Positions 42,603-44,693 of a DNA stretch of 56,391 nucleotides are shown here, in pieces; the stretch's first letter is position 1; the number at the start of each line of letters is the position of its first letter. Both the position numbers and the translations under genes were made by a program. The DNA lies in contig CAYHWE010000002.1 of the NCBI GenBank assembly GCA_964360445.1, forward strand, positions 1 to 56,391, written 5' to 3'. Source of the DNA: an uncultured Gammaproteobacteria bacterium (GTDB lineage: Bacteria; Patescibacteriota; Patescibacteriia; Patescibacteriales; JAKAJF01). Under the pieces are notes generated by a model. That model worked only from the letters and a program-made list of their open reading frames with translations, was not told where the DNA came from and searched no databases.

Positions 42603-44693
42603 ATGTCTGACAACATCATTAAAAAACTGTTACAGCCGAGCGCAAAAGGCAAGGTTTGGAGGGCTTTTATCTTGATCATCTTACTTACTTTCATTGCCGG
42701 TTCGATTGTCGGCGGTTCTTATTACAACAAGGGCGTTGACAGTCTGGCGGTAAAGACTGACAACAAAATCAGATTGCCGCATATTAAGGAATATGATTTC
42801 AGATTAGGTTTAGATCTTTTGGGCGGAAGCAGATTGGTATACAAAGCTGATGTGTCTGCCGTGCCTAATAGCGACAGGACAAACGCTTTAGAGGGTGTGC
42901 GCGATGTGATCGAGCGCCGCGTCAATGTATTCGGCGTCAGCGAACCGATAGTCCAGACAAATAGATCGGGAGACGATTACAGGATCATTGTTGAATTAGC
43001 CGGGATCAAAGATGTTAATGAAGCGATCAAGATGATCGGTGAAACTCCGCTTTTGGAATTCAAAGAACAGAATACGGAAAAAAGAGAATTGACTCCTGAA
43101 GAAAAGAAGGAAATGGATGATTATAATAAAAAGGCTGAAGAGAGAGCGGCTACCGTTTTGGGCAAAGTCATATCAGGCGGAGATTTTTCCGCTTTGGCCA
43201 AGGAATTTTCAGAAGATGCGGCAACCAAGGATAACGGCGGAGATTTAGGCTGGATAACGGAAAAAGATAATTCGGAAATCGTAAAGATCGCCCAAAAATT
43301 GAAAAAGGGAGAAGCATCCAAGGAACTGAGCAAAGTTTCAACTGGATTTGAAATCGTAAAATTTGAAGATAAGAGGGTTAAAACGGATCCATTTAATGAT
43401 AAGAGCCAAGAAAAAGAAGTCAAAGCTTCGCATCTCCTGATTTGCTATAAAGATATCGAGGGATGCGAAAGCGGTCTGACAAAAGAAGAAGCTTACGCGA
43501 AGATAAAGAAATTGAAAGAGCAGGCAACGGCTAAAAATTTCAAAGAATTGGTCAAGGCGAATACGACTGAGCCGGGCGGAAAAGAAAGAAGCGGCGATCT
43601 GGGCTGGTTCGGAAAAGGCATGATGGTCAAACCGTTCGAAGATACCGCGTTTTCCATGCAGAAAGGAACAATTTCTTATGTCGTTGAAACGCAATTCGGT
43701 TACCATCTGATTTATAAGGAAGATGAGAAGTTGATCGAAGAATACAAAGTCAGGCATATCGCGGTCAAGACGAAAACCGCGGAAGATATCATCGGGATCC
43801 AGACAGACTGGAAGAATACTGAGCTGACCGGAAAGAATTTAAAGAAAGCGACTGTGCAATTCAATCCTCAGGATAACACTCCGGAAGTTTCTTTGGAGTT
43901 TGACGATGAAGGAGCGAAGATGTTCGAGGAAGTTACAGCCCGCAATATCGGCAATCCTGTCGCCATTTTCTTGGATAATTATCCGATCAGCACTCCGAAT
44001 GTGAATGAAAAGATTACCGGCGGAAAAGCGGTTATCTCGGGAAACTTTGACTTGAAGGAAGCAAAATTGTTGGCTCAAAGGCTGAACGCCGGCGCCCTGC
44101 CCGTCCCTATCTCTTTGGTCAACCAGCAGATAGTGGGAGCGACATTGGGACATGATTCTCTGCTCGCAAGCCTTAAGGCTGGCATCGTCGGTTTTATCCT
44201 GGTCGCCTTGTTCATGATCTTATTCTACAGATTGCCTGGGTTGATAGCTGTGTTCTCACTGGGAATTTATGGAGTTTTAGTGTTGGCGGTATTCAAGATT
44301 TTCTCAGTAACCTTGACTTTAGCCGGACTTGCCGGATTCATCCTGACCATCGGTATGGCCGTGGACGCAAATATTCTTATTTTTGCCAGGCTTAAAGAAG
44401 AGTTGCGCAAAGGCAAGCCGTTTGGCATGGCCCTAGAAGACGGCTTCCAGAGAGCTTGGCCATCGATCAGGGACAGTAATTCTTTCACGATCATCACCTC
44501 TATTATCCTGATCATGTTTACGACCAGCGTTGTCAAGGGATTTGCCGTTACCCTCATCATCGGCGTCATCATCTCGATGTTCTCGGCAATCGTCATTACG
44601 CGCAATTTCCTGAATTTGATTCCGATGGATTGGTTGGAAAGCAAAGGCTGGCTGATCGGCATGAGAAAAAAATCTTCAGAATTAGCTAAGTAA
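42603..44693 (+). CDS. secD: Protein translocase subunit SecD carrying an insertion of two parvulin-type PPIase domains in the periplasmic P1 head
   Basis: SecD core: [35 protein letters not shown], ...[21 protein letters not shown].AVISG, and the C-terminal TM bundle with [17 protein letters not shown]. Inserted residues ~157-400 contain [26 protein letters not shown] and ASHLLI...[42 protein letters not shown]. Confidence 0.85.
   Translation: [696 protein letters not shown]

Follow-up and report, generated by a model that had tools for sequence, protein, structure and literature searches.

The secD gene of the window (the term used here for the whole 56,391-nucleotide stretch of DNA analyzed) was found to encode a SecD protein that carries a two-domain parvulin module, a net insertion of ~210 residues, in its extracytoplasmic P1 region. 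Taken together, the data probably reflect a SecD that functions as part of SecDF, the proton-driven export motor, with the module built into P1, which would make the protein a translocon-tethered foldase/holdase with nested domains as a substructure. A foldase or holdase role on the translocon, for chains exiting SecYEG, appeared likely. The design is widespread in uncultured Patescibacteria (CPR) and apparently undescribed.

The SecD core was intact, as claimed in the preliminary description. SecD_1st, SecDF_P1_head, and SecD_SecF_C were all found, and the NCBIfam secD model TIGR01129 scored 380.9 bits over residues 68 to 669, above its cutoff of 244.4. An N-terminal TM helix, a P1 base and head, and a C-terminal five-helix bundle were observed by Pfam, AF2, and Foldseek, and the same topology was given by alignment with the Thermus thermophilus SecDF structure (3AQP). 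AF2 helices in the C-terminal part ran from 514 to 672; with TM1 at residues 14 to 51, all residues up to ~510 lie outside the cytoplasm. The membrane-embedded Asp of the AVD(A/G)N motif was present as D588 of GMAVDANIL, which aligned with the Asp of AVDGN in 3AQP and was invariant among 116 close homologues. We take it to be the counterpart of the Asp known for its role in proton conduction in Thermus SecDF. The SecD_SecF_C region aligned to 3AQP residues 259 to 438. The adjacent secF gene scored 292 against the TIGR00966 cutoff of 160 (NCBIfam), and related loci were arranged alike. The neighborhood consisted of housekeeping genes, including secA, secF, proS, and mreBCD, and an Rfam scan of the window gave 0 matches. 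Feature coordinates are collected in the table.

Table. Coordinates of secD, its domains and key residues, and the neighboring secF gene (positions in the window; residue numbers refer to SecD)
Feature	Position	Strand	Basis or remark
secD ORF with parvulin module inside periplasmic P1	42603..44693	+	696 aa; TIGR01129, Pfam
TM1 helix, residues 14-51	42642..42755	+	AF2 DSSP helix
N-terminal P1 unit, SecD_1st, residues 98-157	42894..43073	+	Pfam PF21760, 62 bits
Parvulin insertion region	43071-43802	+	Residues 157-400 of the 696-aa SecD
Parvulin domain 1, residues 165-259, α1 to β4, without β1	43095..43379	+	Rotamase 60.5 bits
Parvulin domain 2, residues 271-377, β1-α3-β-α-β2 order	43413..43733	+	Rotamase profile, PDB matches
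H277 codon	43431-43433	+	β1 His of domain 2
Cysteine pair C281...C288 (C-x6-C), β1-α1 loop of domain 2	43443..43466	+	
E323 codon	43569-43571	+	Pin1 Cys113 / PrsA Asp position
H368 codon	43704-43706	+	β4 His of domain 2
Trailing β-strand (11 residues), residues 379-389, leading into the P1 head	43737..43769	+	AF2 strand
P1 head, SecDF_P1_head, residues 404-501	43812..44105	+	Pfam PF22599, 107.6 bits
SecD transmembrane bundle, residues 504-671, including GMAVD588ANIL	44112..44615	+	Pfam SecD_SecF_C
secF, partner subunit	44704..45594	+	10 nt downstream of secD; TIGR00966

Two Rotamase stretches were placed by Pfam between SecD_1st (98 to 157, 62 bits) and SecDF_P1_head (404 to 501, 108 bits), where Rotamase_3 reached 130 bits (E 7e-38; best 265 to 373) and Rotamase 126 bits, likewise in two stretches. 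Parvulin homology was thus detected within residues 157 to 400, and the ~240 extra residues were, as first described, one partial and one complete parvulin, covering Rotamase profile positions 10 to 97 and 1 to 96, respectively. The 3AQP sequence aligned with SecD residues 63 to 154 and 406 to 685, flanking the insert. The 41 residues of 3AQP (117 to 157) compare with 251 in the window protein, giving a net insertion of ~210 residues, and with purpose-built boundary HMMs the insert measured 245 to 251 residues in 120/120 close homologues. Upstream, the junction lies at PLLEFKE, the strand that closes the N-terminal P1 unit; the ten residues G146 to E155 were invariant in 116 sequences save L150, which was conserved in at least 90%. 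Downstream, it lies at W403-NTELTGKNL, with W403, T406, L408, and G410 invariant among the 116 homologues and the P1 head aligning from 3AQP residue 158 onward. The short motifs quoted in the preliminary description (60 residues) were all present in SecD.

The insert follows TM1 (AF2 helix 14 to 51) and lies within P1, in agreement with its proposed extracytoplasmic location. Its placement in the periplasmic head was correct as to P1 but needed refinement, the actual site being the boundary between base and head, between SecD_1st and SecDF_P1_head, rather than the head core. Both parvulin domains were modeled by AF2 with pLDDT values of 83 to 92; the pTM of the SecD model was only 0.41, so that no confident prediction follows for where the parvulins sit with respect to the head and the SecY exit. 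A Foldseek search with the whole AF2 model returned SecDF at the top (E 5e-22), followed by SurA, and otherwise RND pumps.

Judged by its sequence, domain 2 is a canonical parvulin with the catalytic pocket residues retained. On its own it scored 76.5 bits against Rotamase (PF00639, cutoff 21.7), spanning profile positions 1 to 96 of 97, and 87.4 bits against Rotamase_3 (PF13616). The dual-histidine, acidic, and hydrophobic pocket set was present as His277, Glu323, Met341, Phe345, Thr363, and His368. E323 aligned to the Asp of the PrsA "SED" motif, Glu in place of Cys113/Asp being a presumably conservative substitution. Across 449 relatives of 32 to 90% identity from several candidate phyla, H277 and H368 were kept in >96% of aligned sequences in every group, position 323 was E or D in most, and F345, F365, and T/S363 were likewise conserved. 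The best PDB matches were PrsA1 (6XD8, E 3e-18) and Cbf2 (3RFW). Two cysteines, C281 and C288, were invariant in the 116 close homologues and co-occurred perfectly in the wider set, with both present in 163/449, neither in 286/449, and a single one in 0/449; they probably form a disulfide.

Domain 1 is a degenerate, parvulin-like unit predicted not to be catalytically competent. It covered only Rotamase profile positions 10 to 97 (60.5 bits), which means that β1 is missing, and the β4 histidine position was occupied by Glu250, with E in 107/120 homologues and H in 0/120. These statistics are for the best-120 set; the Peregrinibacteria, in which the Parv1 HMM alignment caught the active domain, were left out. 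Among PDB structures, the PpiD parvulin 2KGJ ranked first (E 2e-12); its own β4 histidine position is occupied by Leu. The complete canonical fold (βα3βαβ2 with both histidines) was accordingly not found in domain 1. The label "partial" given to this domain holds for the missing β1, but the domain is not simply truncated, being degenerate and PpiD-like with its histidine lost. A recent duplication relating domains 1 and 2 was rejected, as they share 36% identity over 25 residues only.

The strand that follows domain 2 may bear on the origin of domain 1. In the AF2 model, strands 366 to 377 and 379 to 389 are one residue apart, a gap that makes a hairpin between them impossible. Strand 379-389 resembles a parvulin β1, and the homologous strand in relatives with a one-domain insert is a canonical β1, "EVKASHILI." H393 was variable, with H in 76/105 parsed sequences. 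At the same SecD site, the parvulin of the one-domain relatives is circularly permuted, its β1 coming after β4: the β4 preceded the β1-like strand in 18/18 informative inserts, and the canonical order was seen in 0/18. When this strand was shifted to the front of the one-domain inserts, the Rotamase match extended to positions 1 to 97 with a gain of 6 to 8 bits. Both histidines were retained in most one-domain forms despite the permutation; in 5/23 variants both were lost, and in two more a Gln was found in the β1-like strand. The same un-permuting of the window domain 1 with its trailing strand brought no real gain (Rotamase, 60.5 to 59.4; Rotamase_3, 54.9 to 56.9). The permutation is therefore well supported, at the level of sequence, for the one-domain relatives only. 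Domain 1 of the window protein nevertheless seems to have had a circularly permuted parvulin as its ancestor, strand 379-389 being the probable permuted β1 of the domain.

Given the permuted parvulin of the one-domain relatives, the window form would seem to consist of a degenerate permuted domain with an active one nested inside it. Domain 2 would probably be nested between β4 of domain 1 and its displaced β1 (379 to 389), a topology based on conservation patterns and the one-residue strand break. A tandem duplication of the permuted ancestral unit could have been the source of such a nested pair.

The architecture was not confined to the window. The same Pfam set was found in 120/120 of the closest database proteins (62 to 90% identity), with intact ORFs and the same junctions. 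Among 49 GTDB species loci with intact ORFs, 40 were two-domain, 6 were one-domain, and 3 were SecDF-fused; of the 46 loci in which secD is a gene of its own, 43 had secF downstream, and in the remaining 3 the contig ended. A parvulin was located between SecD_N and the head in about half of the best 150 representatives of 50%-identity clusters, and Pfam confirmed it in 10/10 sampled cluster representatives. Insert variants comprised one domain, two domains, larger inserts, and a SecD-SecF fusion. The named carriers were Falkow-, Uhr-, Magasanik-, Komeili-, Peregrini-, Peri-, and Gracilibacteria. All carriers with a named source were Patescibacteria, bar a few MAGs that were probably mis-titled; Saccharibacteria were not among the names of the matches.

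As to whether the architecture was already common and characterized, it proved to be the prevalent SecD architecture of several lineages of Patescibacteria, and no characterizing paper was found. No description was returned by literature searches on SecD fused to or interrupted by a parvulin, PpiC, rotamase, or PPIase, or on circularly permuted parvulins, with most subscription journals outside the search. The absence of a separate prsA was upheld for the window, in which no other parvulin was found by tblastn, and no other parvulin genes were found within ±6 kb of the 49 related GTDB loci. The absence applies to these regions only; PrsA-annotated genes are reported in all classes of CPR (PMC9166423). 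The SecD fusion therefore need not be the sole cellular parvulin, and replacement of PrsA by it cannot be claimed.

In the proposed mechanism, the parvulin module would be carried on or beside the mobile P1 head, where it would meet unfolded polypeptide emerging from SecYEG. Domain 1 may serve to bind or hold polypeptide on its surface, and domain 2 is predicted to act as the prolyl isomerase/foldase. Every translocon would thereby possess a covalently tethered helper of the PrsA/PpiD/SurA type. The coupling of foldase and motor suggested in the preliminary description is plausible in view of the retention of H277 and H368 and of the AlphaFold-modeled docking of SurA parvulin domains on the SecDF P1 head (PMC9987972). 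A bolder version, doubtful at present, holds that the SecDF motor and an extracytoplasmic foldase were merged in Patescibacteria, that the pmf-driven swing of the P1 head moves the chain to and from the parvulin groove as a "motorised foldase," that the module replaces free PrsA/PpiD helpers, and that a permuted parvulin was duplicated into a nested inactive/active pair. If this is true, the module would be the first permuted parvulin known from nature, and it would preserve an intermediate step on the path by which duplication leads to circular permutation.

The module could instead be purely a holdase or substrate clamp for SecDF pulling that enlarges the binding surface of the P1 head, with isomerization irrelevant, as in SurA and PpiD. 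Several observations are consistent with this unlikely reading, namely that domain 1 is without histidines and closest to the inactive PpiD parvulin, that some one-domain variants have lost both histidines or bear Gln in the β1-like strand, and that the tandem arrangement aligns with SurA P1-P2. The chaperone functions of SurA and PrsA also outlast the loss of PPIase activity, so that conserved histidines are no proof that catalysis matters. However, the persistence of H277 and H368 across several candidate phyla, together with F345, F365, and T363, and the mostly histidine-complete one-domain forms, exceeds what a generic binding surface would need. This counts against a holdase pure and simple.

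The catalytic pocket also bears on a second alternative, that the insert is a spacer or docking module with no action on Sec substrates, which might lengthen P1 toward cell-wall or S-layer partners or YidC or might regulate the F/I conformational switch of the head. The same SecD site does tolerate unrelated insertions, E. coli-type SecD having ~165 residues more than Thermus before the head. Furthermore, inserts ranged from 0 to 470 residues among the cluster representatives, several without detectable parvulin, and the Peregrinibacteria versions contained additional degenerate units. A mere spacer was nonetheless considered very unlikely, since the pocket residues are conserved, the insert is homologous to foldases working at the Sec exit, and no partner-binding motif was identified in it. 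An artifact, in which chimeric assembly or a frameshift had fused secD with a gene resembling prsA, arises only as an a priori possibility for metagenome-derived sequence and was ruled out, since independent assemblies show the architecture again with the junctions unchanged. The ORF is continuous, with the SecD halves in frame on both sides of the insert, and the junction motifs were invariant in the 116 homologues. The insert GC (0.42) was similar to that of the remaining gene (0.44 to 0.47). Independent assemblies with this architecture numbered in the hundreds, the contigs reaching 1.27 Mb, and the 49 GTDB loci had it in intact ORFs, and the preliminary concern over a chimera was thus dispelled. 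The tethered foldase/holdase remained the favored explanation.

In a parvulin-bearing SecD, secretion motor and folding helper are one protein. How proteins exiting SecYEG are handed over to extracytoplasmic chaperones is an active question, with PpiD/YfgM, SurA-SecDF docking, and the Mycoplasma PrsA-like dome as examples. A natural covalent fusion of parvulin and P1, conserved across a large bacterial radiation, constitutes "Rosetta-stone" evidence that SecDF and parvulin chaperones cooperate, and it gives structural and biochemical work a compact system made up of one polypeptide. It also shows a core machine remodeled in a lineage-specific way, in bacteria that are ultrasmall and have reduced genomes, and the parvulin arrangement, being permuted and nested, is of interest in its own right for the evolution of protein folds. 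Annotation as plain "SecD" or "SecF" leaves the foldase content invisible to pathway surveys, and the parvulin content of SecD may be miscounted as PrsA.

Among known systems, the SecDF proteins of Thermus thermophilus and Deinococcus radiodurans (3AQP, 5YHF, and 5XAN) belong to the same family as the window SecD (sequence E 2e-74) and have in common with it TM1, both units of P1 (base and head), the five-helix bundle with the AVDAN Asp, and the SecF partner. Between the LEF(K/R) strand and the head, Thermus SecDF has 41 residues, whereas the window SecD has 251, amounting to two parvulin domains; unlike in Thermus and Deinococcus, secD and secF are separate genes in the window. Among the parvulins, E. 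coli PpiD likewise presents a parvulin fold at the Sec exit, where it is a membrane-anchored chaperone, and its association with SecYEG has been described (PMC9643414). In neither its parvulin (2KGJ) nor domain 1 is the β4 histidine position occupied by His. PpiD is, however, a stand-alone protein in which an N-terminal TM anchor of its own and chaperone domains accompany a single inactive parvulin, and the PpiD model NF008054 scored only 67.3 against a cutoff of 493, matching residues 160 to 259 only. The Firmicutes PrsA lipoprotein (6XD8, 6VJ6, 4WO7, and 1ZK6) was closest to domain 2 (E 3e-18), with the same His/His and acidic pocket residues, and both are extracytoplasmic in a presumed monoderm envelope. 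PrsA is free on the membrane, whereas the window module is embedded in SecD and has no lipobox and no N/C chaperone domain. The PrsA model NF002846 scored 97.5 (cutoff 361) and NF002827 scored 83.8 (cutoff 343), in both cases in the parvulin region only.

In SurA (1M5Y), an inactive P1 is followed by an active P2, the same order as domains 1 and 2, the activity of domain 2 being predicted. SurA residues 162 to 367 aligned with SecD residues 165 to 379, and SurA was the first non-SecDF match in Foldseek. The SurA P1/P2 parvulin domains were docked on the SecDF P1 head by AlphaFold, and SurA was placed on the holotranslocon by EM (PMC9987972). The N/C chaperone core of SurA is absent from the window module, and the contact with SecD is covalent in the window protein. 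SurA serves outer membrane proteins of diderms, whereas CPR bacteria are thought to be without an outer membrane, and the SurA model NF008038 scored 70.1 against a cutoff of 394, matching only the tandem parvulin region (171 to 377). In Mycoplasma pneumoniae, also genome-reduced, the PrsA-like proteins Mdp436/444/489 form a dome over SecYEG-SecDF in which catalytic residues are found in one parvulin domain only, the others being degenerate (bioRxiv 10.1101/2025.04.25.650208). As in the window SecD, the Sec translocon, SecDF included, has a foldase of the parvulin type physically attached to it; the Mycoplasma foldases are separate lipoproteins that form a chamber, whereas the parvulins of the window protein lie inside the SecD polypeptide itself.

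The secD product scored 380.9 against the NCBIfam equivalog-domain model TIGR01129 (cutoff 244.4), and the membrane Asp of SecD was present as D588 in AVDAN. Every defining feature of the SecD family that was tested was found, and the protein is a SecD with an intact core. The preliminary description had reported a parvulin insertion within this gene; its coordinates and quoted motifs proved correct by Pfam, NCBIfam and alignment to the Thermus thermophilus SecDF (3AQP), and HMM searches, whose failure it had named as a possible refutation, detected the parvulin domains. Its division of the insert into one partial and one complete domain was also recovered, with domain 1 (residues 165-259) matching Rotamase profile positions 10-97 and domain 2 (residues 271-377) matching positions 1-96.

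Features of the secD-secF region and of the SecD protein (Pfam domains and AlphaFold2 [AF2] secondary structure)
Feature	Position	Strand	Details
secD ORF	42603-44693	+	696 codons; contains 43071-43802
secF ORF	44704-45594	+	296 codons, 10 nt downstream of secD; SecF by TIGR00966, 292 vs cutoff 160
SecD_1st	residues 98-157		Pfam
PPIC-type rotamase	two stretches, best residues 265-373		Pfam; Rotamase_3 130 bits, E 7e-38; Rotamase 126 bits
SecDF_P1_head	residues 404-501		Pfam
SecD_SecF_C	residues 504-671		Pfam
Strand (LLEFKE)	151-156		AF2
Helices	165-190, 195-202, 206-209		AF2
Strand; helix; strands	214-218; 224-230; 243-245 and 248-259		AF2
Strand	271-280		AF2; follows an 11-residue loop after strand 248-259
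Helices	294-307, 313-320, 326-329		AF2
Strand; helix; strands	332-336; 343-351; 361-363 and 366-377		AF2
Strand	379-389		AF2; one residue after 366-377, then head

The gene context was that of ordinary housekeeping genes. secA (35826-38606, +) lies ∼4 kb upstream of secD, and the interval contains a UMPH-1-type nucleotidase (38803-39657) followed by NUDIX and, beyond some further unannotated ORFs, by Maf and HD-domain genes. Downstream of secF are proS, mreB, mreC, mreD and a PBP2-type transpeptidase (46115-52494, +), the mre genes indicating rod-shape machinery in this CPR genome. Elsewhere in the window, a long co-directional cluster (2221-24529, +) has a GC content of 0.33 to 0.39, versus 0.40 to 0.48 in the right half. 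Its genes specify glycosyltransferases (GT2, GT1/GT4), five or more SAM methyltransferases, a PMT_2-like transferase, a radical-SAM protein and a set of sugar-nucleotide enzymes (dehydratase/epimerase, nucleotidyltransferase, GHMP kinase, SIS+HAD fusion and hexapeptide acyltransferase). The cluster is probably an island for the biosynthesis of surface glycans or glycoproteins. At its edge, an ORF of 642 aa (108-2036, +; GC 0.45) contains a Lamin Tail Domain (PF00932, E 8e-14) and may encode a surface protein.

Thermus SecDF aligned to SecD residues 63-154 and 406-685, and the interval between these blocks held 251 residues, versus 41 (117-157) in 3AQP. The insert sits at the base/head boundary, with the N-terminal P1 unit on one side and the P1 head unit on the other, and not inside the head core; the parvulin module is extracytoplasmic. 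E. coli-type SecD carries ∼165 residues more than Thermus at the same site (5MG3_D from 323; NF009545 from profile position 313), and across related proteins the site held 0 to 470 residues, making this boundary a tolerated insertion site.

An assembly chimera, which had been named as a possible refutation, was excluded, as was any other artefactual origin of the fusion, by recurrent architecture, invariant junctions, intact ORFs and similar GC. All 120 best database matches (62 to 90% identity, ∼99% coverage), on contigs reaching 1.27 Mb, had an identical Pfam set, and custom boundary HMMs gave an insert of 245 to 251 residues in each. In the 116-sequence alignment, the ten-residue upstream junction (L150 at ≥90%) and the downstream junction (W403/T406/L408/G410) were essentially invariant. 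The GC content was 0.42 in the insert and 0.44 to 0.47 in the rest of secD. A GTDB scan with one genome per species, from which 80 loci were taken out of at least 600 matching stretches, yielded among the loci listed at least 40 intact ORFs for SecD with two parvulin units, at least 6 with one and at least 3 for SecD-SecF fusions. Of the 46 secD genes not fused to secF among the loci listed, 43 were followed by secF, the contig ending at the remaining 3.

Among 1.84 billion 50%-identity cluster representatives searched, 4,429 matched at E≤1e-30. About half of the best 150 had one or more parvulins between SecD_N and the head, and 67 were plain SecD without the insert, so that not all of the nearest relatives share the insertion. 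Carriers fell into two-domain (∼655 to 705 aa), one-domain (∼560 to 625 aa), larger-insert (∼775 to 940 aa) and SecD-SecF fusion (1,015 to 1,120 aa) forms, and Pfam confirmed Rotamase and SecD units in 10/10 sampled representatives. Apart from some metagenome-assembled genome (MAG) titles, the named sources were Patescibacteria/CPR: Falkowbacteria and “Patescibacteria group” in the window's clade, Peregrinibacteria for the SecDF-fused form (together with Gracilibacteria) and for the ∼780-aa form and, among the GTDB matches listed, Uhrbacteria, Magasanikbacteria, Komeilibacteria, Peribacteria and the Parcubacteria group. Many GTDB-representative MAGs with the CPR-type gene were titled “uncultured Gammaproteobacteria,” “Candidatus Binatia,” “Hyphomicrobiales” or “Lysobacteraceae” (loci L001, L008, L012, L015, L016, L020 and others). 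Because their SecD has the same fusion architecture as CPR-named loci and up to 67% identity to the window's (67% for the L001 insert), these titles are probably placeholders or reflect naming or binning errors.

The co-occurrence of SecD and parvulin was already visible in precomputed Pfam annotations, the source labeling the proteins only SecD or SecF. The possibility raised beforehand, that the architecture might be both common and characterized, held for the first part; no description of the fusion was found in the literature searched, with most subscription journals outside it. The fusion is thus common in nature, uncharacterized and mechanistically suggestive.

Two variants were noted among the related proteins. 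Peregrinibacteria SecD (P0163 and P0391-P0429, ∼780 aa; P0161-type SecDF, ∼1,070 aa) combines a single histidine-complete parvulin with one or two highly degenerate parvulin-like units N-terminal to it and, in the ∼780-aa class, ∼60 further residues after it; P0163 has Cys (SDCPS) instead of Asp/Glu at the Pin1 Cys113 position. Six two-domain proteins (P0081, P0084, P0097, P0104, P0105 and P0112) carry a ∼45-residue extra hydrophobic segment in the TM bundle after FK(L/I)xP (alignment A1 columns 586-632), which might be an extra TM hairpin.

By sequence and residue criteria, domain 2 is a complete canonical parvulin, its closest solved structures being PrsA1 (6XD8, E 3e-18), Cbf2 and archaeal parvulins. 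Its residues include H277 in β1, H368 in β4, M341, F345 and T363; at the Pin1 Cys113 position, where PrsA has the Asp of its “SED” motif, the alignment places E323. Among 449 proteins whose inserts are of two-domain size, drawn from five sampling groups, both histidines were retained in >96% of aligned sequences in every group, with F345, F365 and T/S363 similarly conserved, and the conserved positions were still invariant down to 32% identity. This conservation indicates strong constraint on the catalytic pocket. The β1-α1 loop contains a C-x6-C pair, C281 (43443-43445) and C288 (43464-43466), invariant in the window's clade; of the 449 sequences, 163 had both cysteines, 286 neither and none only one. 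The pair probably forms a disulfide that staples a loop shaping substrate specificity in other parvulins, although the both-or-neither pattern also fits another paired function in an extracytoplasmic domain.

Domain 1 lacks the N-terminal β1, and the β4-histidine position is occupied by Glu250 (E in 107/120 sequences, H in 0). Its best solved match was the E. coli PpiD parvulin (2KGJ, E 2e-12), with Leu at the equivalent position. This PpiD domain is catalytically inactive. Identity between domains 1 and 2 was only 36% over 25 residues; the duplication is therefore old.

In the one-domain relatives, the elements run in a different order: LEFKE, a long helix, DF..LAKEYSED..GGDL.WF, ..TQFG[YW]HIIKK (β4, with its His), an acidic loop and then, before the head, EVKASHIL[IF]KT, the canonical β1 motif placed after β4. 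Both histidine motifs in this order were found in 16 of 23 one-domain-size inserts; in 2 others the order was the same but the β1-like strand carried Gln, 5 were degenerate, and the canonical β1-to-β4 order occurred in none of the 23. Relatives with β1 placed after β4 include P0129, P0135, P0137, P0142, P0153, P0162 and P0168 and loci L042, L044, L046, L060 and L078. Moving the β1-like strand to the N terminus in silico extended the Pfam match from 8-97 to 1-97 in P0137 (85.8 to 91.4) and from 12-96 to 1-96 in P0129 (87.5 to 93.9), a gain of 6 to 8 bits. The sequences thus indicate a circularly permuted parvulin with both histidines mostly kept, an arrangement likewise without a description in the literature searched, most subscription journals lying outside it.

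The segment that follows domain 2 in the window's protein (EYKVRH393IAVKT) is β1-like, with H393 in 76/105 parsed sequences; un-permuting domain 1 gave no real Pfam score gain. The AF2 model, built from 116 sequences, had a mean pLDDT of 79.8 (83 to 92 over residues 160-390) and a pTM of only 0.41. In it, only one residue separates the last two strands before the head, a link too short for a hairpin. Together with conserved H277/H368 and degenerate E250/H393, this favors a nested topology: domain 1 would be permuted and degenerate, its β4 and its displaced β1 flanking the active canonical domain 2. Exactly such a topology would follow if a permuted unit were duplicated in tandem.

Among the chaperones to which Sec substrates pass, PpiD, PrsA and SurA contain parvulin domains. 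In SecDF, the proton-motive force swings the P1 head from one conformation to another, and the head thereby captures and pulls the polypeptide leaving SecYEG (3AQP, 5XAN, 5YHF). SurA has been seen by EM at the periplasmic face of the SecYEG-SecDF-YidC holotranslocon, its P1/P2 parvulin domains lying on the SecDF P1 head in all AlphaFold models (PMC9987972). In Mycoplasma pneumoniae, a dome of PrsA-like lipoproteins covers SecYEG-SecDF, with substrate density touching the sole catalytically intact parvulin domain (bioRxiv 10.1101/2025.04.25.650208). CPR SecD would make such a partnership covalent: domain 1 may offer a surface for binding or holding, domain 2 may act as prolyl isomerase, and both would sit beside the moving P1 head, so that each translocon would have its own foldase.

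This tethered foldase/holdase reading is, as a whole, reasonably likely, the importance of catalysis being its main uncertainty. A pure holdase or clamp, with catalysis irrelevant, would be in keeping with the degenerate domain 1 and has to be weighed against the constraint on the domain 2 pocket. The same constraint also speaks against a spacer, docking or regulatory element, the other rival, which the tolerance of the site for inserts of varied length would accommodate. As a tethered foldase/holdase, the window's SecD would work by analogy like a PpiD, PrsA or SurA helper fused into the translocase. It is itself none of these proteins: its matches to the three full-length NCBIfam models are confined to the parvulin regions, and the scores therefore fell far below every cutoff.

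The preliminary description had also noted the lack of a separate prsA. This was upheld within the window and ±6 kb around 49 related loci listed, and does not imply genome-wide absence. Members of all CPR classes have been reported to encode PrsA (PMC9166423); these calls might be stand-alone genes or the SecD-parvulin proteins themselves, and replacement of PrsA by the fusion therefore remains a prediction. The tandem inactive and active parvulins of SurA resemble the module described here. CPR bacteria are thought to have no outer membrane (PMC12102498), and PrsA and PpiD are therefore better functional analogies than SurA.
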